From a virus: a stretch of DNA of 64,000 bases. The stretch lies in the IMG/VR virus record IMGVR_UViG_3300036892_000014, positions 1 through 64,000 of that record; one strand, written 5' to 3'. The translations under genes were made by a program, and so were the position numbers. The notes beneath the pieces were generated by a model, which searched no databases, was not told the DNA's origin, and saw only the letters and a program-made list of their open reading frames with translations. Below are positions 6,698 through 15,004 of this stretch, in pieces (position 1 is the stretch's first letter; each line of letters begins with the position of its first letter).

Positions 6698-6917
6698 GGA
6701 AAAGAAATGTACGCAATTATCTGTCTCGTTGTTACGTTGGCTGTCGGGGCTCTGTTTATCGCGGCCTTCAGAAAATCTTGGAATTAAGGGAAACGAAATG
6801 ATGAAAGCAGTCCTGCATTATTTGGATAAAGAGATTTTCAGGCTCTCAGCGCAGTTGCGCTATTTGAAGAACCTGCAAAAGTTTCTTTCATAAAGTTCTT
6901 GACAAACAGGAGATATC

Positions 6918-7145
6918 ATGGTAGAATTCGTATTAGCAATCGGGGCTGTCATCGCAACAGCCGTCGCGATCTCGAAGCACTTCTCCGCGGCGCAGCTTAA
7001 GGTTGACCTAGCCTCAGCGAAGGCAGCCGTGGTGAGCGAAGTGAACAAGGTCAAGGCTACAGTCATCGTCGAGTTGGCCAAGGTCGCTCCGAGCGCAAGC
7101 GCGGACGTTCAGGCACTCGTGGTTAAGATCAAAGCAGTGCTTTGA
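6918..7145 (+). CDS. small membrane-anchored Ala/Val-rich protein
   Basis: AGGAG RBS, N-terminal hydrophobic helix. Confidence 0.65.
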   Translation: MVEFVLAIGAVIATAVAISKHFSAAQLKVDLASAKAAVVSEVNKVKATVIVELAKVAPSASADVQALVVKIKAVL

Positions 7146-7188: not shown

Positions 7189-7265
7189 GGTGAGCCAGGC
7201 GAAACAGGTGACGCGCTAGACTGTGAATCTGGTTACAGTGGGTTCGAGACCCACGGCCCACCCCA
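7189..7265 (+). tRNA. tRNA-His(GTG)
   Basis: Cloverleaf, G-1, encoded CCA. Confidence 0.9.
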
Positions 7266-7336
7266 ATTTTAAATCCACGACTACGGTCAGGTGCAAAGTT
7301 TGAAGTTGAAGTTGCCGAAAGAAAAAGTTTAGATAA

Positions 7337-7414
7337 CGCGCCTGTCCAGGCATTGGGGTCGCCCCAGAATTCGGACCATCTGGTCCCGAACGCTCGCGAG
7401 AGGATCGGGGCACA
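7337..7414 (+). ncRNA. putative cloverleaf-like ncRNA
   Basis: Outer stem plus hairpins TGGGG/CCCCA and TTCGG/CCGAA; ATTTT trailer like the tRNAs. Confidence 0.35.
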
Positions 7415-7432
7415 TTTTAGAAAGCAGGGTTT

Positions 7433-7708
7433 ATGGCCGGATACGAGATGGATGTTCCCGAGTATCCGCACAGAATGACGTACCGCGTCGTCGGAGGTTT
7501 CCACTTGCCTTACGACGTGTCAAAGACTCCCGAAGAAAAGAAGTCCAGCCCGCAGCGGCTTGAGCAGTTGATCTTGGCAGGCGAGCAAGCGAGTATAACG
7601 TTTCGCGTTCTTCCCGTGGACATACAGCAACTGTACGTGAAACAGTTCGCGATGTTACTGGCCGAGATCGAGAAGTTGAGATTGAAGTTGCCTAAAGAAA
7701 AAGTTTAG
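7433..7708 (+). CDS. hypothetical protein in tRNA array
   Basis: 91-aa ORF; shares YDVSKTP with 5941-6483. Confidence 0.55.
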   Translation: MAGYEMDVPEYPHRMTYRVVGGFHLPYDVSKTPEEKKSSPQRLEQLILAGEQASITFRVLPVDIQQLYVKQFAMLLAEIEKLRLKLPKEKV

Positions 7709-7782
7709 CCGCTCTAGCTCAGTGGTAGAGCGCCGGTCTGAAAAGCCGGGCGTCTGTGGTTCGATTCCCCAGTGCGGCACCA
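7708..7782 (+). tRNA. tRNA-Phe(GAA)
   Basis: Cloverleaf, CCA. Confidence 0.9.
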
Positions 7783-7788
7783 AGTTTT

Positions 7789-7855
7789 GGCTGAGTATGC
7801 TTCGCCGTGCAAACGGAATGAAGACCAACCAGCGGTCCTGTTACCAGGAGCCGCA
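7789..7855 (+). ncRNA. putative four-way-junction ncRNA
   Basis: GGCT/AGCC closing stem with three hairpins; AAGTTT trailer. Confidence 0.35.
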
Positions 7856-7861
7856 AAGTTT

Positions 7862-7972
7862 ATGAAAACTAGATGGTGTACGATTTGTCACTGGTGGTTA
7901 ACATTGCCGTGGTCTCACAACCACTGCTCTAAGTGTGGCTCGCGTCTAGTACAAGTAGCAAATCGGTTTTAG
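7862..7972 (+). CDS. 36-aa zinc-ribbon peptide
   Basis: CTIC...CSKC. Confidence 0.45.
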   Translation: MKTRWCTICHWWLTLPWSHNHCSKCGSRLVQVANRF

Positions 7973-8055
7973 CCCTGCTGGTGGAATGGCAGACGCGCCG
8001 CACTCAAAACGCGGTTCCTTCGGGAGTCTCAGTTCGAATCTGAGGCGGGGCACCA
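7972..8055 (+). tRNA. tRNA-Leu(CAA)
   Basis: Cloverleaf, long variable arm, CCA. Confidence 0.9.
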
Positions 8056-8060
8056 AAGAT

Positions 8061-8142
8061 TGGAGTGACTTCGAAAACGGTCAATAAGTTTCGAAGCTTG
8101 TTGAACCGCAGCCTCCGCCTAGAAAGCGCGGGCAGCACTCCA
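8061..8142 (+). ncRNA. putative structured ncRNA ending in CCA
   Basis: TGGAGTG/CACTCCA outer stem, CTTCGAAA/TTTCGAAG hairpin, possible loop pseudoknot CGGTCAA/TTGAACCG. Confidence 0.45.
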
Positions 8143-8159
8143 TAGTTTTAGTCCAAGTT

Positions 8160-8366
8160 TGACCGCGTGGAAGGATACCAAGGTTCTCTCGTGAACGATG
8201 AGGCCCAGAAACGCGAAACGTCGGCGGACGAGACTCCGCAGGTAGTCGTCAAAAAGTTCGTAGGCATGATAGCGCGGCTCCGCCGAATAAATCGGTAAAG
8301 ACGGGTACGCCGACCGAGATCACGCTACCGATGTTTGATTGACAAGGGCCGCTTAATCGCGGTCGG
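8160..8366 (+). ncRNA. putative ~205-nt multibranch ncRNA
   Basis: GACCGCG/CGCGGTC outer stem; nested AAACGTCGG/CCGATGTTT, GGTAG/CTACC, GCGGA/TCCGC. Confidence 0.5.
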
Positions 8367-8371
8367 AGATT

Positions 8372-8461
8372 ACCCCGCAGCGATGGTTCGCGGCAGAGTT
8401 CTATAAACTCTTCGGGCCAGATAAGCCTTGCTATGTCGTCCGATTCGACAGTGGGGTACCA
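8372..8461 (+). tRNA. atypical tRNA-Ile(TAT) with long variable arm
   Basis: ACCCCGC/GTGGGGT acceptor, AGAGT-TCTATAA-ACTCT anticodon arm, CCA. Confidence 0.7.
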
Positions 8462-8466
8462 ATTTT

Positions 8467-8552
8467 GCGCTGCTGATGGAATGGCAGACATGCGGGACTT
8501 AAACCCCCGTGGGAGAAATCCCATGAGCGTTCGACTCGCTCGCGGCGCACCA
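8467..8552 (+). tRNA. tRNA-Leu(TAA)
   Basis: Cloverleaf, CCA. Confidence 0.9.
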
Positions 8553-8576
8553 AGTTCTAGAAGTCATGGAGTCTTT

Positions 8577-8816
8577 ATGAGCAAGTCATATGGTGATAAC
8601 CGCGACGACCAAGCATCAGTGCCGTCGGCTGGCGGGGAAATTCGTGCCCGTGGTAAGAGCAGCGCCGAGCAGGATAAGGGTCGCGACGATCAGTCGGCTG
8701 TGGCTGTTGGCGGTGGTGTGAACCGCATGCGTGGTAAGTTGACAGCCGAACAGGACAACGGTCGCGATGACCAGTTTTCAAAGCCGTCAAGCGGCGGAAC
8801 GATCCGTAAGAAGTAA
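8577..8816 (+). CDS. 79-aa hydrophilic protein with three 27-aa RDDQ repeats
   Basis: GGAG RBS; repeats visible in the protein. Confidence 0.7.
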   Translation: MSKSYGDNRDDQASVPSAGGEIRARGKSSAEQDKGRDDQSAVAVGGGVNRMRGKLTAEQDNGRDDQFSKPSSGGTIRKK

Positions 8817-8911
8817 TGCTCACGGGAATAATTATCGGGCTGGCGATTGTGGTGGCTATAGAGTTGATCTCGGACCACCCGCTGTTCGTCCGTCGTAGAA
8901 AATAAGTTTAT

Positions 8912-8987
8912 GCGTTTGTAGCTCAATAGGCAGAGCACTCCCCTCTTAAGGGATAGGTTGCTGGATCATTGCCAGCCGGACGCACCA
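8912..8987 (+). tRNA. tRNA-Lys(CTT)
   Basis: Cloverleaf, CCA. Confidence 0.9.
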
Positions 8988-9004
8988 TTTTGTACGTACA
9001 TTAG

Positions 9005-9048
9005 TTGGGGAGTGCCCTAACACTCCCCGACATCCTTTAGGGAGGATG
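9005..9048 (+). promoter_or_regulatory. kissing-loop RBS-masking leader, copy A
   Basis: GGGGAGTG-CCCTAA-CACTCCCC then CATCCT-TTAGGG-AGGATG; loops complementary. Confidence 0.8.
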
Positions 9049-9050
9049 CC

Positions 9051-9557
9051 ATGATTTGTAAACTTTGTAGCGAGGTCTTTTCGTCGAAAGACAAGCGAAG
9101 ACTATTTTGTTCTAGGTCTTGTTCAGCAACGTACTCGAACAAGTTTGGTGATAGACCAGTTTCACAGAACAGACGACCGTGTCCAGATTGTGGGCAAGAG
9201 ATTAGAAATAAGAATACCAAGACTTGCATAGATTGCCGTGCTGGCAGGCAGCACAGAGAAACAGGATTTCTCAAAAAGAAAGACGTGAATCGTGAGAGGA
9301 TTAGCGCTCACGCTAGAAGGGTTATCAAAGAACACCTCTCGTCTTGTAAAGTTTGCGGGTACGACTTTGCTGTAGAAGCAGCGCACGTCAAACCCGTTAA
9401 AGAGTTTTCAGGTGACGCGACGATAGAAGAGATTAACAGAATAGAAAATCTGTTGCCTCTATGTCCTAATCACCACTTAGAGTTCGACCGAGGTAAGTTG
9501 ACTCTAGAAACAATCTTATCGGTTGCGGATGCGAGCGGCAGCAATGCGGCCTTTTAA
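9051..9557 (+). CDS. HNH homing endonuclease (Zn fingers + HNH)
   Basis: CxxC repeats, EAAHVKP...ENLLPLCPNHH. Confidence 0.9.
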   Translation: MICKLCSEVFSSKDKRRLFCSRSCSATYSNKFGDRPVSQNRRPCPDCGQEIRNKNTKTCIDCRAGRQHRETGFLKKKDVNRERISAHARRVIKEHLSSCKVCGYDFAVEAAHVKPVKEFSGDATIEEINRIENLLPLCPNHHLEFDRGKLTLETILSVADASGSNAAF

Positions 9558-9594
9558 GCCGAGTGTCAGGGTTCGAGCCCCTGGCGACCGACCA
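9520..9594 (+). tRNA. tRNA-Lys(TTT)
   Basis: Cloverleaf, CCA; overlaps HNH 3' end. Confidence 0.85.
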
Positions 9595-9600
9595 ATTTTG

Positions 9601-9692
9601 TGGGAATATAGTTCGGGATAATATCCGAATAGTCCTGGCAACGCATGCGAAACCAGGAAAGGGCGTCGTGAGAATCGGCGAGTTCCCAGCCA
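9601..9692 (+). ncRNA. tRNA-like RNA without a standard anticodon loop
   Basis: TGGGAAT/GTTCCCA acceptor + G + CCA, T-arm CGTCG-TGAGAAT-CGGCG, aberrant D and anticodon arms. Confidence 0.6.
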
Positions 9693-9700
9693 TTTTACGT

Positions 9701-9790
9701 GGAAGTGCGGCGAAGACGGCGGGTCGTATCTGTCTGTAAAACAGATTGCCCTTGTGGCACTAAGAGGTTCAAATCCTCTCGCTTCCACCA
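9701..9790 (+). tRNA. tRNA-Tyr(GTA)
   Basis: Cloverleaf, long variable arm, CCA. Confidence 0.9.
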
Positions 9791-9798
9791 TTTTCTAT

Positions 9799-9873
9799 AG
9801 TTCACTGGCGCAACAGCAGCGCAGTCTCTTGATAGGGGAACGGTTCGTGGTGCAAATCCACGGTGGACTACCA
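9799..9873 (+). tRNA. tRNA-Ile(GAT)
   Basis: Cloverleaf, CCA. Confidence 0.8.
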
Positions 9874-9877
9874 ACTT

Positions 9878-9980
9878 AGTGTTGAGTTCGACGTGTGCAA
9901 GCGTCGGATGTAGTACAGCACAATCAGTTCGTTCTCGGACGTAAACCGAATGGTGGATCAATAATTCCTGATGACACTCC
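9878..9980 (+). ncRNA. putative pseudoknotted ncRNA or leader upstream of HNH
   Basis: AGTGTTG/TGACACT outer stem, TTCGACG/CGTCGGA hairpin, loop TGTGC pairs with GCACA. Confidence 0.4.
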
Positions 9981-9997
9981 TGCCCAGGGAGAATCAC

Positions 9998-10489
9998 ATG
10001 ATTATTGTTTCCGATAGTTGGGACGGACAAATAAGAAAGCTGTCCTCTCATAGTTGTTTGCAATGCAGTGAAGAATTTTTCGCGCCGCTTAAAGCGCGAG
10101 CTAAGTATTGTAGTAGAGACTGCATGGGTTTTGCTACGCGGACTCGAATCAAGATTTCGTGTTCTAGGTGTCGTAAAGAGTTTGAACGACAACAGAACAA
10201 AGTTAAAGAGTTAAACTATTGTAGTAGGGAGTGCAAAGAGTTAGACCAGCAGATTGGCGGTCCTCTAGCGCTACCACACTACAAAGACGGCAGACACGAT
10301 TACAGAAATCGAGCGTTTCGCTTACAAGGAAAGAAGTGTAAGCAATGTAGCTTCGATGAAGACGAGCGAATGCTCGATGTTCATCACATAGATAGTAATC
10401 GAGATAACGGACGACCTGAGAACTTAGTTGTTCTTTGCGTTTGGTGTCACGCCGCCACCACAAGAAAAGTTTCTGGGGCTATCGCCTAA
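9998..10489 (+). CDS. HNH homing endonuclease
   Basis: CxxC/YCSRxC repeats, LDVHHIDSNRDN...ENLVVLCVWCH. Confidence 0.9.
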   Translation: MIIVSDSWDGQIRKLSSHSCLQCSEEFFAPLKARAKYCSRDCMGFATRTRIKISCSRCRKEFERQQNKVKELNYCSRECKELDQQIGGPLALPHYKDGRHDYRNRAFRLQGKKCKQCSFDEDERMLDVHHIDSNRDNGRPENLVVLCVWCHAATTRKVSGAIA

Positions 10490-10551
10490 TTGGGATGGCA
10501 CTTCCCTTGCAAGGAAGAACAATGTCGGATCGTCCCCGACTAGCTCCACCA
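10475..10551 (+). tRNA. tRNA-Ala(TGC)
   Basis: Cloverleaf, G3:U70, CCA; overlaps HNH stop. Confidence 0.9.
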
Positions 10552-10560
10552 AGTTTCAAT

Positions 10561-10635
10561 TCGCGGCTGGCAGATCGGCTCATGCATCGGTCCTACACAC
10601 CGACCAGCGAGGTTCAACTCCTCGGCGGCGAACCA
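10561..10635 (+). tRNA. tRNA-Val(TAC)
   Basis: Cloverleaf, C33, CCA. Confidence 0.8.
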
Positions 10636-10639
10636 TTTT

Positions 10640-10714
10640 GGCTCCTTGGTCCAACGAACAAGACTCAGCGCTACGAACGCTGCAATTTCGGTTTGAATCC
10701 GAAGGGGGCTTCCA
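10640..10714 (+). tRNA. tRNA-Arg(ACG)
   Basis: Cloverleaf, CCA. Confidence 0.85.
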
Positions 10715-10719
10715 ATCTT

Positions 10720-10795
10720 TGGGGATTCGTCTAAACGATAAGACATCTGGCCGTTAACCAGACCGATGAAGGTTTGAATCCTTTGTCCCCAGCCA
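10720..10795 (+). tRNA. tRNA-Asn(GTT)
   Basis: Cloverleaf, C33, CCA. Confidence 0.85.
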
Positions 10796-10803
10796 TTTTA
10801 CGA

Positions 10804-10879
10804 GCACGCATCATATAGCGGTCCAATATTCCGAGCTTGTACCTCGGTCACTTCCGTTCGAATCGGAATGTGTGCTCCA
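10804..10879 (+). tRNA. tRNA-Thr(TGT)
   Basis: Cloverleaf, CCA. Confidence 0.85.
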
Positions 10880-10884
10880 GTTTT

Positions 10885-10958
10885 GCTTTGCTCGTCTAGT
10901 GGTAAGACGACGGTTTCGTAAACCGCAAACGACTGTTCGATTCAGTCGCGAAGCTCCA
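10885..10958 (+). tRNA. tRNA-Thr(CGT)
   Basis: Cloverleaf, CCA. Confidence 0.9.
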
Positions 10959-10964
10959 GTTTAT

Positions 10965-11038
10965 GCTTTGTTCGTACAAAGGAAGTACACGTCTTTGGTA
11001 AAGACGAAACGATGGGTCAGTACCATCACGAAGCTCCA
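10965..11038 (+). tRNA. tRNA-Thr(GGT)
   Basis: Cloverleaf, CCA. Confidence 0.85.
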
Positions 11039-11043
11039 GTTTA

Positions 11044-11110
11044 CGCCCCGAGTCACGCAACACGTAGCCTACAAAACAGGTAGGAGCTAGTGGCCTTTTG
11101 AAAGGGGCGA
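11044..11110 (+). ncRNA. putative structured ncRNA
   Basis: CGCCCC/GGGGCG outer stem, GTCAC/GTGGC, CCTAC/GTAGG. Confidence 0.4.
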
Positions 11111-11119
11111 AAAATTTAC

Positions 11120-11198
11120 GGTCTCGTGGCCCAGCCTGGCCCACGGCGCTCCCCTGTCACGGGAGATTTCACGAGTTCAAATCTCGTCGAGACCGCCA
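11120..11198 (+). tRNA. tRNA-Asp(GTC)
   Basis: Cloverleaf, CCA. Confidence 0.9.
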
Positions 11199-11204
11199 AT
11201 TTAT

Positions 11205-11278
11205 GGCCCTGTCTTCTAATGGCAGGATTCTTGCTTCTCAGGCAGGCGGCAGCGGGTCAGTACCGCTCAGGGCTACCA
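11205..11278 (+). tRNA. tRNA-Glu(CTC)
   Basis: Cloverleaf, CCA. Confidence 0.85.
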
Positions 11279-11283
11279 ATTTT

Positions 11284-11358
11284 CGCGCAGTACGTTATGG
11301 GTTAGACAGCGTGCCTTTCAAGCACGCAGACAGAGTTCGAGTCTCTGCTACGCGACCA
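11284..11358 (+). tRNA. tRNA-Glu(TTC)
   Basis: Cloverleaf, CCA. Confidence 0.85.
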
Positions 11359-11448
11359 ATTATCGATGTGTGCGACAACTTTAGCGAAGTAGTTCTCGGA
11401 CACATTGCACGATGCGGTGCAAGTAGCAATTCCGCGTCGGAGTTTAAT

Positions 11449-11533
11449 GCCCTGCTGATGGAATTGGCAGACATATCCGTCTTAGAAACGGATGCCTTCG
11501 GGCGTACAGGTTCGACTCCTGTGTGGGGTACCA
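11449..11533 (+). tRNA. tRNA-Leu(TAG)
   Basis: Cloverleaf, long variable arm, CCA. Confidence 0.9.
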
Positions 11534-11541
11534 ATTTCAAT

Positions 11542-11629
11542 TGTGGGTTCGACTAGTGGCCGATGTCGCCTGTCTCATAAGCAGGTCAGCGAAAGCGCAC
11601 CGTTGGTTCAAATCCAACACCCGCAACCA
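11542..11629 (+). tRNA. tRNA-Met or Ile2 (CAT) with long variable arm
   Basis: Cloverleaf, CCA; Met versus lysidine-Ile cannot be resolved by eye. Confidence 0.8.
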
Positions 11630-11644
11630 ATTTGATGCATCATA

Positions 11645-11689
11645 GGCCGGGGTGCCCTTAACACCCCGACCAACTCTTTAAGGGAGAGT
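11645..11689 (+). promoter_or_regulatory. kissing-loop RBS-masking leader, copy B
   Basis: CGGGGTG-CCCTTAA-CACCCCG then ACTCT-TTAAGGG-AGAGT. Confidence 0.8.
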
Positions 11690-11692
11690 GCT

Positions 11693-12187
11693 ATGTTTAA
11701 CAAGGCAGAAAACCATAAGCGTTACATGCGGGAAGTTTGGTATCCGGCTAACAAGCGAAAACACCAGACGATGGTTCACCGACGTAAGGTAGCCATACTA
11801 GAATTTGTTCGAGCCGCTAAAGCAATCGGCTGTTCGAGGTGTCCAGAGAAAGAGATATGCTGTCTGGACTTTCATCACGCTAAAGGTAAGAAGAGCGCCA
11901 GCCTATCAAGGGTTCATACGTTGGGCTGGTCGTGGGCTAGGATTAAGCGAGAGATCGCAAAGTGCATTATATTGTGTTCTAACTGTCACAGGAAAGAACA
12001 TGCTAGAGGCCGTGGGCTCGTTTCCCACCCCTGCTACCAATTTATGAATCATAAACGCCGTCGCCCAAAGAATCGCCGTGCTGGATGTCTCATGTGCAAA
12101 GCGCATAAGATGAACGGTGCAAAAGGTGAAATGCTCGCGACCAAGGTCAAGGGCATCAAGGGTAAGATACGGCTTGAAGAAGTTTAA
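11693..12187 (+). CDS. HNH endonuclease fused in frame, through a tRNA remnant, to a small basic ORF (12044-12187)
   Basis: CSRC...LDFHH...EIAKCIILCSNCHRKEH, then reads through a tRNA 3' half. Confidence 0.8.
   Translation: MFNKAENHKRYMREVWYPANKRKHQTMVHRRKVAILEFVRAAKAIGCSRCPEKEICCLDFHHAKGKKSASLSRVHTLGWSWARIKREIAKCIILCSNCHRKEHARGRGLVSHPCYQFMNHKRRRPKNRRAGCLMCKAHKMNGAKGEMLATKVKGIKGKIRLEEV
12003..12039 (+). pseudogene. 3' half of a tRNA (T-arm, acceptor strand, CCA)
   Basis: GTGGG-CTCGTTT-CCCAC CCCTGCT A CCA ATTT; 5' half absent. Confidence 0.7.
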
Positions 12188-12261
12188 GCGATGTTGGTAT
12201 AGTGGTAGAACGATTCCTTGCCAAGGAATAGGCACCGTTTCGATTACGGTACGTCGCTCCA
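12188..12261 (+). tRNA. tRNA-Gly(GCC)
   Basis: Cloverleaf, CCA. Confidence 0.85.
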
Positions 12262-12475
12262 TAGCCGCGAGTGGTGAAAGCCACGGACGGCTCCAAGTTT
12301 CGTTAACCCCGCAATTATGGCGGGACAACCAAATCGTAGGTAGGTTGAAAACCCTACCCCAATTTTACCATATGCCTTGCGGCATGATCGGCATACATAG
12401 TAGAAGCCGCAGTCTTCGCTGCCCGTCAGTTGTTCAAGACTTTAAACATGGGCGACGGGCGAATTTAGGTGATCT

Positions 12476-12721
12476 ATGTTCACAGCCGTAGTGATGACAC
12501 TCGGACTTGTTGTAGACTTGGTCGCTCTGTATTTCTTAGTCGGCATTTGGCGCGATGACAGATTGATGAGAATCGCCGCAGAAGACACATTGAAGGTGCA
12601 GCAAGAATATCTCGGCCTCAGACGAAAGTGGTATGAGAGTCGCACAAAGAAGAAGACTGATGCTCAAGAACCGAAAGCCGCAACTGGAATTCCTGATGGC
12701 GGTAGTTCGAACCCTGTGTAA
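12476..12721 (+). CDS. small membrane protein
   Basis: AGGTG RBS, N-terminal TM helix. Confidence 0.6.
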   Translation: MFTAVVMTLGLVVDLVALYFLVGIWRDDRLMRIAAEDTLKVQQEYLGLRRKWYESRTKKKTDAQEPKAATGIPDGGSSNPV

Positions 12722-12785
12722 CGTGGCAGGCGTAATCATCAGCATCATTTACGTTCTTTGGCAAATGCATTTGTTACCTTTTTAA

Positions 12786-12859
12786 GCGGGCTTGACCGAA
12801 CGGCCAGGTACCTGCCTTCCAAGCAGAGGAAGCGATTTCGACTATCGCAGTCCGCTCCA
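12786..12859 (+). tRNA. tRNA-Gly(TCC)
   Basis: Cloverleaf, CCA. Confidence 0.85.
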
Positions 12860-12862
12860 GTA

Positions 12863-12943
12863 TTCGGGTAGAGGGGTTCGAATCCCACAGGCGTGAACGG
12901 GTAAGGCCGCACGTTGCTATAGTGTAATGGCAGCACACCCGAA
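12863..12943 (+). ncRNA. circularly permuted tRNA-like RNA (YrlA / Y RNA-like)
   Basis: T-loop TTCGAAT precedes D-arm AGTGTAATGGCAGCAC; ends pair TTCGGGT/ACCCGAA. Confidence 0.65.
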
Positions 12944-12954
12944 ATTAGTTCCGC

Positions 12955-13029
12955 GAGTCGCAAGTGTTATGGCTGCATCTCCGTCTCCAAAACGGTAGGG
13001 TGATAGTTCGAATCTATCGCGTCTCGCCA
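12955..13029 (+). tRNA. tRNA-Trp(CCA)
   Basis: Cloverleaf, CCA. Confidence 0.85.
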
Positions 13030-13036
13030 ATTTTAT

Positions 13037-13111
13037 GGGTCTCTCGTTCAATGGAGAGGACGCCACACTTCTAAGGTGGCTATGTCGGTTCGATTCCGAC
13101 GGGGCCTTCCA
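13037..13111 (+). tRNA. tRNA-Arg(TCT)
   Basis: Cloverleaf, CCA. Confidence 0.85.
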
Positions 13112-13117
13112 GTTTCT

Positions 13118-13192
13118 GAATGTATAGCTCAATGGAAAGAGCTAGGGTTTCCTAAACCCTCGATCCAGGTTCGACTCCTGGTACGTTCTCCA
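13118..13192 (+). tRNA. tRNA-Arg(CCT)
   Basis: Cloverleaf, CCA. Confidence 0.9.
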
Positions 13193-13206
13193 GTTCAAGG
13201 GGCAGT

Positions 13207-13605
13207 ATGAAACTCAGTAGGTTCCCATATTGGCAACTGCTAGCGATACCTGCTCTAGCGTGGTGCCTAGGACTCGGATTAAACCAGGCGGTATTGATTG
13301 CCAATCACGGGAAGTTCCCCGTGATGGTGAATGAAGTCCAGTATGAGATACATTGCACCGCGGATGAAGACTCAGATGACGCGCCGTCATCATCGTGTGT
13401 AAAAGGCGGTCAGTTCTTTGATAGAGAACATAGTGTTATGGGGCCGAACTCGCGTCTGAAACCATTAGCCGACATCCTTCCGATAGTCGGCGGCGTATAC
13501 AGTATCGGCGACACTCTACTCCTCGTGGGTGGAGAGTCATTTGCAATTTTGAAATTTATGTGGCTTGCTCTGGTAATCAGAAAGGCCTCACAGAACTTAG
13601 GGTAG
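13207..13605 (+). CDS. DUF5317-like membrane protein
   Basis: LNQAVLIANHGKFPV...HSVM...SRLKPLADIL...YSIGD motifs. Confidence 0.7.
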   Translation: MKLSRFPYWQLLAIPALAWCLGLGLNQAVLIANHGKFPVMVNEVQYEIHCTADEDSDDAPSSSCVKGGQFFDREHSVMGPNSRLKPLADILPIVGGVYSIGDTLLLVGGESFAILKFMWLALVIRKASQNLG

Positions 13606-13912
13606 GCTGGACGACCGCAGGAAACTGAGGAAGTTCGGGACTCTTCTAGACAGAAGACTGTGGAAGATGCAGGACGCGTAAGCGTACGGGTAAGGCCAGA
13701 TGCGGTGCAGATGCTATGGGAAACCAAATGCGGACATCGCCATTCAAGTCTGGGCACTCCCTCTTCGGAGCAATCTCAAATAGGACCTGAGCGCGTCTAG
13801 CGCGATGACGGTCGGGTTGAGAGCAAAGACGGATGGTCGTCAACTTATAACGTGACAATTCGAAAGATTTGTCAACTTATAACGTGACAGAATCCCGGCT
13901 ATAGGCCGACCC
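13600..13912 (+). ncRNA. rnpB: RNase P RNA (bacterial A-type-like, reduced)
   Basis: GAGGAAGTTCGGGA and ACAGAATCCCGGCTA form P4; P1, P2, P3, P6 (CTAGA/TCTAG), P8, P9 and P15-17 can be paired. Confidence 0.9.
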
Positions 13913-13923
13913 AAAGATATTAC

Positions 13924-14009
13924 GGATCAGTGGCGAAATGGTAGACGCACGAGTTTGCTAAACTCGCAACTGAAAGGTTGTGCCTGTTCAAGTCGGGCCT
14001 GATCCGCCA
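13924..14009 (+). tRNA. tRNA-Ser(GCT)
   Basis: Cloverleaf, long variable arm, CCA. Confidence 0.9.
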
Positions 14010-14017
14010 AATTTCAA

Positions 14018-14102
14018 GGAAGATTCCGCTCATGGTGGGCAATCCGGTTTGAACCCGGAGGCTGCTGAAAGGCAGGGGTTTCGATTACTCACTCTTCCTC
14101 CA
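14018..14102 (+). tRNA. tRNA-Ser(TGA)
   Basis: Cloverleaf, long variable arm, CCA. Confidence 0.8.
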
Positions 14103-14108
14103 TTTTAA

Positions 14109-14182
14109 CCACGAGTCGGCAAACGGCAAGCTGAATGTCTGCAAAACATTTACCGCTGGTTCGACTCCAGCCTCGTGGTCCA
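14109..14182 (+). tRNA. tRNA-Cys(GCA)
   Basis: Cloverleaf, U73, CCA. Confidence 0.9.
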
Positions 14183-14191
14183 AGTTTCTAC

Positions 14192-14266
14192 TGGGCGATG
14201 GTGTAACGGTAACATCACGGACTTTGAATCCGTTGGATGAACGTTCGAATCGTTCTTGCCCAGCCA
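14192..14266 (+). tRNA. tRNA-Gln(TTG)
   Basis: Cloverleaf, CCA. Confidence 0.9.
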
Positions 14267-14274
14267 ATTTCAAT

Positions 14275-14349
14275 TGCTCGGTCATCTAATTAGTAGGATG
14301 CGATCCTCTGAAGATTGTCATGCTGGTGCGAGTCCAGCCCAAGCAACCA
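14275..14349 (+). tRNA. tRNA-Gln(CTG)
   Basis: Cloverleaf, CCA. Confidence 0.85.
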
Positions 14350-14350
14350 A

Positions 14351-14426
14351 CACCCGATAGCTCAAAGCGATTAGAGCACCTGGCTTGACCAGAGAGATAC
14401 CGCCTAGCGAACGGTTTGGGTGACCA
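14351..14426 (+). ncRNA. tRNA-like RNA with 5-nt anticodon loop
   Basis: CACCCGA/TTGGGTG acceptor + ACCA, D-arm, CTGG-CTTGA-CCAG, non-canonical T-loop. Confidence 0.6.
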
Positions 14427-14433
14427 ATTTAAT

Positions 14434-14522
14434 CGGGTTATAGCTCCGTAATCTGGCAGCGGTCTGGTTTTGGAAACCAGTGACTAACGTCCTTCGAGGT
14501 CCGAATCCTCGTAGCCCGACCA
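14434..14522 (+). tRNA. tRNA-Pro(TGG) with extended variable arm
   Basis: Cloverleaf, CCA. Confidence 0.85.
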
Positions 14523-14542
14523 TTTTGTATGTACGTACATTT

Positions 14543-14590
14543 GACGGGACGAGCCTGTAACTCGTCCCGTCTACTCTTTACAGGAGAGTA
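14543..14590 (+). promoter_or_regulatory. kissing-loop RBS-masking leader, copy C
   Basis: GACGGGACGAG-CCTGTAA-CTCGTCCCGTC then TACTCT-TTACAGG-AGAGTA. Confidence 0.85.
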
Positions 14591-14592
14591 TC

Positions 14593-14973
14593 ATGATTAG
14601 TTCAGAAGCGCAGAAAGCGTGGAAGAGAAAAGACTATCTAGATAAGAAAGCATATAAGAAAGCATATTATTTAGCGCGAGACACCGAGCGATACTACAGG
14701 TTTCGAGAGATTTTGATTGAGGCGAAGAGAAAGCCTTGCATAGATTGCGGACACGAGTTTCCGACCTGTGCAATGGATTTGCATCATAGAAACCAGAGTG
14801 AGAAGATTCGAAACGTCTCTACCTTAAAAGACTTCTCTTCCGAGAAGAAATTGAGAGAAGAGATTGCCAAGTGTGATGTGATATGTGCTTGCTGTCATCG
14901 AATCCGCTCAGATAAAGACAAAGTTTACTTCGGGAATTCTGATAGTGGTAATCTACGCCCTTCGGATGGGTGA
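14593..14973 (+). CDS. HNH endonuclease
   Basis: CIDCG...MDLHH...EIAKCDVICACCHRIR; stop codon lies inside tRNA-Pro(CGG). Confidence 0.85.
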   Translation: MISSEAQKAWKRKDYLDKKAYKKAYYLARDTERYYRFREILIEAKRKPCIDCGHEFPTCAMDLHHRNQSEKIRNVSTLKDFSSEKKLREEIAKCDVICACCHRIRSDKDKVYFGNSDSGNLRPSDG

Positions 14974-15004
14974 GACAGAGTTTCGATTACTCTATTCCCG
15001 ACCA
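14931..15004 (+). tRNA. tRNA-Pro(CGG)
   Basis: Cloverleaf, CCA. Confidence 0.85.

Follow-up and report, generated by a model that had tools for sequence, protein, structure and literature searches.

An RNase P RNA homologue with a slid P4 helix and reduced architecture in the tRNA gene array of a tailed phage

The tRNA gene array of a tailed phage contains, at 13599-13917 on the + strand, a homologue of bacterial type A RNase P RNA. Its catalytic domain is complete, with helices P1-P5 and P15-17, the P6 pseudoknot and the GGU that binds CCA. We consider it probable that the locus is a phage gene, rnpB, for a type A-derived RNase P RNA subunit that works with the RnpA protein of the host, a reading for which there are no activity data. 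A literature search, in which papers on rnpB annotation tools were included, returned no paper that describes an RNase P RNA encoded by a phage; coverage was incomplete, and a prior report is possible. Within that limit, the carrier of this type A-descended RNase P RNA is unreported, and the RNA itself has a distinctive P4 and is reduced in architecture. The window referred to below is the whole stretch of DNA analyzed, positions 1 to 64,000 of IMG/VR record IMGVR_UViG_3300036892_000014, and the RNA gene within it is termed the window copy.

Results

Identification of the RNase P RNA

A permissive cmscan of 13190-13930 matched the locus to the Rfam model RNaseP_bact_a (RF00010) over model positions 1-367, with a score of 93.6 bits (E 3.9e-29). 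When the whole 83,881-bp record was searched, an RNase P RNA match was returned at the identical place (E 1e-30). The RF00010 gathering cut-off is 100 bits, and the window copy, ~6 bits short, does not meet this requirement of at least 100 bits. A scan of the whole window at Rfam gathering thresholds reported 17 tRNAs and no RNase P, a result that reflects a score below the cut-off and is a threshold effect only. The preliminary description of this DNA, made from the sequence alone, had called an RNase P RNA at 13600-13912 and named a cmscan against RNaseP_bact_a as the check; place and strand were right, and the match sits below the gathering cut-off. The predicted RNA folded at -113 kcal/mol, with a z score of -4.9 against dinucleotide shuffles. 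Features of the locus and its surroundings, in window positions, are as follows.

6899-6927, +, promoter-like site ahead of the first tRNA gene (TTGACA, 17 nt, TAGAAT, with TG); consensus match only
7190-15004, +, array of 28 tRNA genes surrounding rnpB, with CCA encoded in all (ARAGORN)
13207-13605, +, 132-aa ORF inside the tRNA array with a DUF5317 match (E 4e-8); stop codon within the P1 5' strand
13599-13917, +, putative phage rnpB, a reduced type A RNase P RNA of ~319 nt (RF00010 match, RNA contigs)
13600-13616, +, P1 5' strand (13600-13609) and P2 5' strand (13610-13616, GACGACC), pairing with 13902-13912 and 13835-13841
13618-13627, +, minimal P3 of 3 bp with a GAAA loop (CAG-GAAA-CUG; RF00010 alignment)
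13632-13640, +, P4 5' strand, AGUUCGGGA, in a variant 'slid' form, pairing with UCCCGGCU at 13893-13900
13645-13652, +, J5/7 with the P6 5' strand (AGAC, 13648-13651); complement GUCU at 13795-13798 in the P17 loop
13653-13766, +, specificity-domain (S-domain) remnant: P7 (GAAGA/UCUUC), P8, P9 (GUAA loop), P10 and a long irregular GAAA-capped arm
13767-13822, +, P5 3' strand, P15, L15, P16/17, J16/15 with GGU, and P15 3' strand (RF00010 alignment; P15 and P5 covary)
13823-13841, +, joiner from P15 directly to AGACGGAUG without P18, then P2 3' strand GGUCGUC (cmscan)
13842-13886, +, J2/4 insertion forming a GAAA-capped P19-like hairpin; arms are copies of a 19-nt repeat
13887-13912, +, ACAGAA, P4 3' strand UCCCGGCU and P1 3' strand (RF00010 alignment)

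Phage rnpB genes had been described as uncommon in the preliminary description, in agreement with our searches. Exact matches to the P4 motifs detailed below were few among ~2.9 million IMG/VR contigs, and blastn with the window RNA and with that of a 204 kb viral relative (G010) gave no match in 50,697 deposited phage genomes.

Genomic setting

The source record is an 83.9 kb linear metagenome contig of an uncultured peat/permafrost tailed phage, with an estimated IMG/VR completeness of ~79%. Genes for terminase, portal and major head protein lie downstream of the tRNA array, and rnpB is situated 7.5 kb upstream of terminase. The RNA had been placed inside a phage tRNA array, and the 28 tRNA genes on one strand, followed by these structural genes, bear this out. 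Its immediate neighbors are tRNA-Arg(CCT) at 13118-13192 and tRNA-Ser at 13924-14009, the latter starting 11 nt past P1. Some of the encoded tRNAs are atypical. T-loops depart from TTCRANY in 8 of 28 (genes at 7190, 8912, 9799, 10475, 10640, 10720, 14275 and 14434), with ATCATTG, ATCGTCC and TGCAAAT as examples, and the D-loop region lacks GG in 5 of 28. The elbow-deviant tRNAs include tRNA-Lys(CTT) at 8912 and tRNA-Ala at 10475.

A PF00825 search for RnpA found no match in the entire 83,881-bp record, which extends to the full contig an earlier statement that rnpA is missing from the window. RnpA was likewise not encoded in any of five related viral records, including two near-complete 360-kb genomes (at least 90%). 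Because the phage has no rnpA, any protein partner of the RNA must be the host's. Use of host RnpA is consistent with the data and is inferred.

Protein-coding genes are interspersed in the array. HNH endonuclease ORFs (Pfam HNH_2 and HNH) occur between tRNA genes at 9051-9557 and 9971-10489 (+). The DUF5317 ORF terminates at a UAG within the rnpB P1 5' strand; thus, its mRNA and the ribozyme would share a transcript or overlap. A scan for promoters and terminators gave counts no higher than shuffles, leaving the site at 6899-6927 as a lead only, and no terminator-like site was found on the + strand between rnpB and its neighbors.

The catalytic domain

In P1 of the window copy there is a single A.G mismatch and a single bulged A, and P2 is formed by GACGACC and GGUCGUC. 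P3 is reduced to 3 bp; P3 hairpins of relatives have 5 to ~30 bp. P4 consists of 8 bp plus one bulged U, and its flanks, GAGGA on the 5' strand and ACAGAA on the 3' strand, are identical to consensus. P5 is CUCU/GGAG and P15 is UCUC/GAGA. The P6 pseudoknot is formed by CUAGAC in J5/7, which is complementary to GUCUAG in the P17 loop. The L15/16 internal loop retains CGGGUU at 13813-18, which includes GGU, the pairing partner of tRNA 3'-CCA in type A enzymes. The type A hallmark, P15-P16-P17 with a GGU internal loop and P6 pairing to the P17 loop, is therefore present. P1, P2, P3, P4 with its bulged U, P6, P8, P9 and P15-17 are all located where the preliminary description had put them. The retained GGU, together with CCA encoded in 28 of 28 tRNAs of the array, constitutes a fit between RNA and substrates.

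The specificity domain and the J2/4 hairpin

The P7-P10 cruciform of the S-domain is present in the window copy, and P7 covaries. After P10, a single irregular GAAA-capped arm replaces P11-P14 and their joiners. P13/P14 are missing, and neither the J11/12 joiner (ACAGARA; CR-II) nor the J12/13 joiner (GUGAAA; CR-III) was found in the window copy. CR-II and CR-III motifs are present in the larger relatives G001, L113, L114, G011 and L129. The absence of ACAGAGA and GUGAAA joiners substantiates the earlier impression of a reduced specificity domain. Taken alone, the S-domain arm folded no better than shuffles (z -1.5).

At the position of P18, where the model has 24 nt, cmscan aligned 0 nt of the window copy, so the earlier wording that there is 'no clear P18' was accurate. 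A P18 capped by GNRA is retained in every other member, and the window copy lacks this type A feature. The feature is common and not obligatory, since natural P18-less type A RNAs exist (PMC8457005). In Aquificales and Chlorobium, P18 has been lost naturally, and a single interdomain strut (L8-P4) can suffice (PMC8457005). The window copy resembles these RNAs in having lost P18 while keeping L8/P4 and the core (PMC8457005). They differ in being cellular, with a complete S-domain and a canonical P4, whereas the window copy has also lost P13/14 and the joiners and has gained a hairpin in J2/4.

That hairpin arises from a 45-nt insertion between the P2 3' strand and ACAGAA (-12.4 kcal/mol, z -3.1). 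A 19-nt direct repeat had been noticed in the P19 region, and it is exact, with copies at 13839-13857 and 13871-13889. It is not a separate feature, however: because each copy is nearly palindromic, the two pair together as a long hairpin and make up the two arms of the P19-like element. Short GNRA hairpins with differing stem sequences occupy the J2/4 position in G001, L113, L149 and G019, and J2/4 is a plain 4 nt in six members, giving a hairpin in 5 of 12 distinct members with G019 counted. The hairpin of the window copy is by far the longest, and a pattern search found no other relative with a J2/4 insertion of 37-67 nt. We speculate that the long GAAA-capped hairpin serves as a substitute strut for the lost P18.

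In type B RNase P RNA (Bacillus type, RF00011), P19 is a hairpin between the P2 3' and P4 3' strands. The window hairpin is at an equivalent place but is GNRA-capped and unusually long. The remainder of the window RNA is type A, with P15-17 and P6 and without P5.1, P10.1 or P15.1.

The slid P4 helix

Canonical bacterial P4 reads GAGGA-AAGUCCGGG-CUC and ACAGAA-CCCGGCUU-A. In the window copy and all its relatives, P4 reads GAGGA-AGUUCGGGA-CUC and ACAGAA-UCCCGGCU-A. Strand lengths and flanks equal those of the canonical helix and every pair is kept; the content is moved by one position. The change can be read in two equivalent ways. Either AGU and the bulged U are one pair nearer the 5' end of the helix, or the second U is bulged, the canonical geometry is retained and four pairs have changed on both sides. 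P4 is invariant in the clade except in L111, where an inner A-U pair has become G-C.

The atoms used in the RNase P active site are O4 of the bulged U together with backbone oxygens from the two nucleotides before it (PMC3488217). The window P4 still offers a bulged U that follows A and G, and catalysis by a slid-P4 RNA is plausible for this reason, without activity data. The active-site geometry may differ from the canonical one.

We found no rnpB with the exact variant P4 17-mer among 185,579 species genomes, a search that does not exclude near variants. The 24 matches of the 17-mer GAGGAAGTTCGGGACTC in these genomes were attributed to chance (~70 expected), as none had a downstream P4 3' strand or L15 motif. 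One candidate among viral contigs, L005, was also rejected as a chance match of the 17-mer.

Canonical-P4 RNAs also occur in viruses. The exact canonical P4 17-mer was found in 22 IMG/VR contigs, about nine of them with dense tRNA arrays, on contigs of 31-463 kb. Two of these RNAs, from a 463-kb contig (L175) and a 101-kb contig (L182), are 79-83% identical to the variant RNAs G001, L113 and G011 over 190-265 nt. Gene order around L182 is the same as in G001. The existence of such close canonical-P4 phage relatives indicates that the slide occurred, or was reverted, inside a phage RNase P RNA lineage. L175 and L182 resemble the window copy in residing in tRNA arrays of large phages, but in both of them P4 is of the standard type and P18 is present, and identity between the window copy and any canonical-P4 viral RNA is only ~50%. 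As a separate observation, the order Val(tac)-Gly(gcc)-Ala(tgc)-...-rnpB-Gly(tcc) is common to L175, L182 and L177 (canonical P4) and to L004 (G001, variant P4).

Relatives of the window copy

Relatives were sought with exact patterns: a 17-mer of the P4 5' strand and 17- and 18-mers of the P4 3' strand. RNase P RNAs were found in eight further viral records among ~2.9 million IMG/VR contigs. Seven are full-length by RF00010 (65-168 bits), namely G001 (89 kb), G005 (83 kb), G010 (204 kb), G011 (103 kb), G019 (43 kb) and two jumbo genomes of 360 kb each, G014 (90% complete) and G016 (91% complete). Seven metagenome contigs found with the P4 patterns scored 68-187 bits. Across relatives, nine RF00010 scores fell at 118-187 bits and three at 65-72. 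Ten further distinct relatives were recognized; eleven sequences including the window copy were compared and are 42-82% identical, with G019 as a twelfth. The nearest relative of the window copy is ~54% identical. Nearly all relatives are situated among tRNA genes. A terminase search of viral contigs yielded two short fragments only, without rnpB.

Several members are unusual in their own right. In the eighth viral record, G018 (L169:1-420 (-); 173 kb, 100% complete), no more than the 3' half of the RNase P RNA can be recognized, comprising L15/16 CGGGUAGG, AGAUAAAUG, the P2 3' strand, a hairpin in J2/4 and the P4 3' strand in its variant form. The P4 5' strand was absent within 420 nt upstream, and no RF00010 match was obtained. 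Its rnpB may be split, interrupted or degraded. The rnpB of G014 (L168:1501-2150 (-)) is 650 nt long, with a block of ~300 nt inserted in the P12-P14 region of the S-domain. L129, 82% identical to G014 rnpB, lacks the block, and a 130-aa ORF (1657-2049, -) overlaps it; the block may represent mobile DNA that inserted into a ribozyme gene. L149, L111 and L171 (G019) form a second reduced variant-P4 subclass of 277-345 nt (65-72 bits), 63% identical to one another, in which the S-domain is very small and the P15 region is constructed differently. On one metagenome contig, a weak sub-cut-off tmRNA-like match (L142:1445-1518 (-), 30.6 bits) lies in the tRNA array beside a variant-P4 rnpB.

Covariation

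MAFFT misplaced the J18/2-P2 3' segment of the window copy in the alignment because P18 is missing, and pairs were instead counted at fixed offsets from invariant anchors. For P1, P2, P5, P7 and P15, 96.9% of 257 cells were paired, compared with 72 +/- 2.4% after shuffling of partners, and none of 2000 shuffles reached the observed value. Shuffling of 3' partners preserves column make-up and ignores relatedness, so the significance is somewhat overstated; many double changes are plain nonetheless. P1 and P2 covary across 10 relatives. P6 occurs in six sequences (AGAC, GGAC, GAAC, GAGC, GUGC and GUAC), and its exact complement is found 11-15 nt past the L15 motif in 9 of 9 standard members. GGU is kept in 8 of the 9. 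On this comparative evidence, the catalytic-domain architecture is under selection within the clade. For the parts specific to the window copy, namely its long hairpin in J2/4 and its rebuilt arm of the S-domain, there is no covariation support because no close relative of the window copy was found.

DNA and RNA in metagenomes

A 1-kb stretch around rnpB that includes both junctions was represented in DNA runs of several independent studies, which contained 67-100% of its words. These were peat, permafrost and freshwater metagenomes, and six RNA runs contained part of the stretch. We compared four metatranscriptome assemblies with the rnpB region. In three runs from three studies, RNA contigs 100% identical to the phage fell only within the predicted RNA (13606-13777, 13618-13887 and 13629-13905). 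Their k-mer depths were 44, 48.5 and 124 to ~240, and flanking contigs in run X10 had depths of 2.1 and 3.5. The fourth, run X8, had flank contigs (13127-13615 and 14027-14100) and none on rnpB, a lack of cover that proves nothing. Assembled RNA contigs give no ends, strand or level, and carry-over of DNA is possible. The data hint, and no more than hint, at a stable transcript close to the predicted size.

Discussion

The window copy shares with bacterial type A RNA (E. coli M1 RNA/rnpB and Thermotoga maritima P RNA; RF00010) helices P1-P5, the P7-P10 cruciform and P15-L15-P16/17 with GGU. Also shared are the P6 pseudoknot, the conserved stretches of J18/2 and J2/4, and the bulged U in P4. 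It differs from these RNAs in being phage-encoded, in lacking rnpA, P18, P13/14 and the CR-II/III joiners, and in having a P3 of 3 bp, a 45-nt J2/4 hairpin and a P4 of AGUUCGGGA/UCCCGGCU instead of AAGUCCGGG/CCCGGCUU. Reduction of RNase P RNA has precedents. In Mycoplasma fermentans-type minimal RNAs, archaeal type T RNAs and plastid RNAs, the specificity domain is shrunken or degenerate and the catalytic domain is preserved, likely with greater dependence on protein. The window copy differs from these RNAs in lineage, phage tRNA-array setting and P4 sequence.

Several observations count against a working enzyme. These are the sub-cut-off score, the missing P18, P13/14 and CR-II/III joiners, the 3-bp P3, the A.G mismatch in P1 and a catalytic P4 that departs from a near-universal sequence. 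The locus could be a decaying relic, a once-functional phage rnpB or a captured host rnpB that is now inactive, with host RNase P doing all processing. Such decay would suit the low score, the short P3 and imperfect P1, the loss of CR-II/III motifs and P18 that larger relatives both retain, and an S-domain arm that folds no better than shuffles. It sits poorly, however, with a catalytic domain in which all helices, the P6 pseudoknot and GGU are intact. The losses are clean removals of whole modules rather than scattered damage, and the sequence inserted in J2/4 forms a GNRA hairpin that is well formed in its own right. High-depth RNA contigs confined to the gene in three studies, and recurrence of the same DNA in several peat, permafrost and freshwater metagenomes, also argue against decay. 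We therefore regard a relic as unlikely.

Another possibility is that the RNA has been repurposed, either as a sponge or retargeter of host RnpA or for processing of other phage transcripts, such as those at HNH-ORF/tRNA junctions, with general maturation of pre-tRNA secondary. The rebuilt substrate-reading domain is compatible with a new role, as are the need for a host partner in a phage without rnpA and the presence in the array of ORFs adjoining or overlapping rnpB and tRNA genes. Nevertheless, an RNA that served purely as a protein sponge would not require GGU, the loop of P15/16 or an entire active-site architecture, all of which are kept, and the constant association of relatives with tRNA arrays points to tRNA substrates. 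Repurposing is, in our judgment, quite improbable. That a bacterial rnpB, as host DNA or through an assembly chimera, was misjoined to phage sequence can practically be dismissed: the record is a linear metagenome contig that is ~79% complete, but the gene is inside a one-strand tRNA array 7.5 kb upstream of terminase, the 1-kb stretch with both junctions recurs, at 67-100% of its words, in DNA runs of several independent studies, the P4 17-mer is in no rnpB of the 185,579 species genomes, and relatives occur in eight other viral records.

On the favored reading, a phage RNase P RNA that acts with host RnpA, rnpB would be transcribed together with the phage tRNA array and would accumulate as a stable RNA of ~320 nt. 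The phage RNA and host RnpA would then cut 5' leaders off the CCA-bearing pre-tRNAs of the phage. The cut at tRNA-Ser, which starts 11 nt downstream, would at the same time remove the 3' trailer of the rnpB RNA. With its substrate-reading half rebuilt without elbow joiners, the enzyme is predicted to depend less on a canonical T/D-loop, an inference drawn from the loss of the joiners that read the elbow. The preliminary description had suggested that the RNA is tuned to atypical tRNAs. This is plausible and fits the 8 of 28 deviant T-loops and the five tRNAs without D-loop GG, which are no proof. A broader model is that large tailed phages maintain their own slid-P4 lineage of RNase P RNAs, stripped in smaller phages such as this one of the elbow-reading domain as well, and that altered geometry, relaxed substrate choice and host RnpA together provide processing of the phage's own, partly non-canonical tRNA array. 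We advance this model only tentatively, as a possibility.

The general view of RNase P RNA is that of a housekeeping ribozyme universal to cells. A lineage of it in phages would join the tRNAs, tmRNA and synthetases of large phages, and a phage rnpB would show phage investment in tRNA maturation beyond the supply of tRNAs. The sub-threshold Rfam score means that such genes are missed by default annotation. Without P18, P13/14 and the elbow-reading joiners, the window copy would represent a natural minimal type A enzyme, informative on the need for the specificity domain. The clade as a whole amounts to a natural experiment in which the enzyme's most conserved helix varies, as P4 has slid by one position, its pairs all kept, between RNAs that are ~80% identical. 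Because RNAs this similar differ in P4, tolerance of the active site can be tested directly by P4 swaps.
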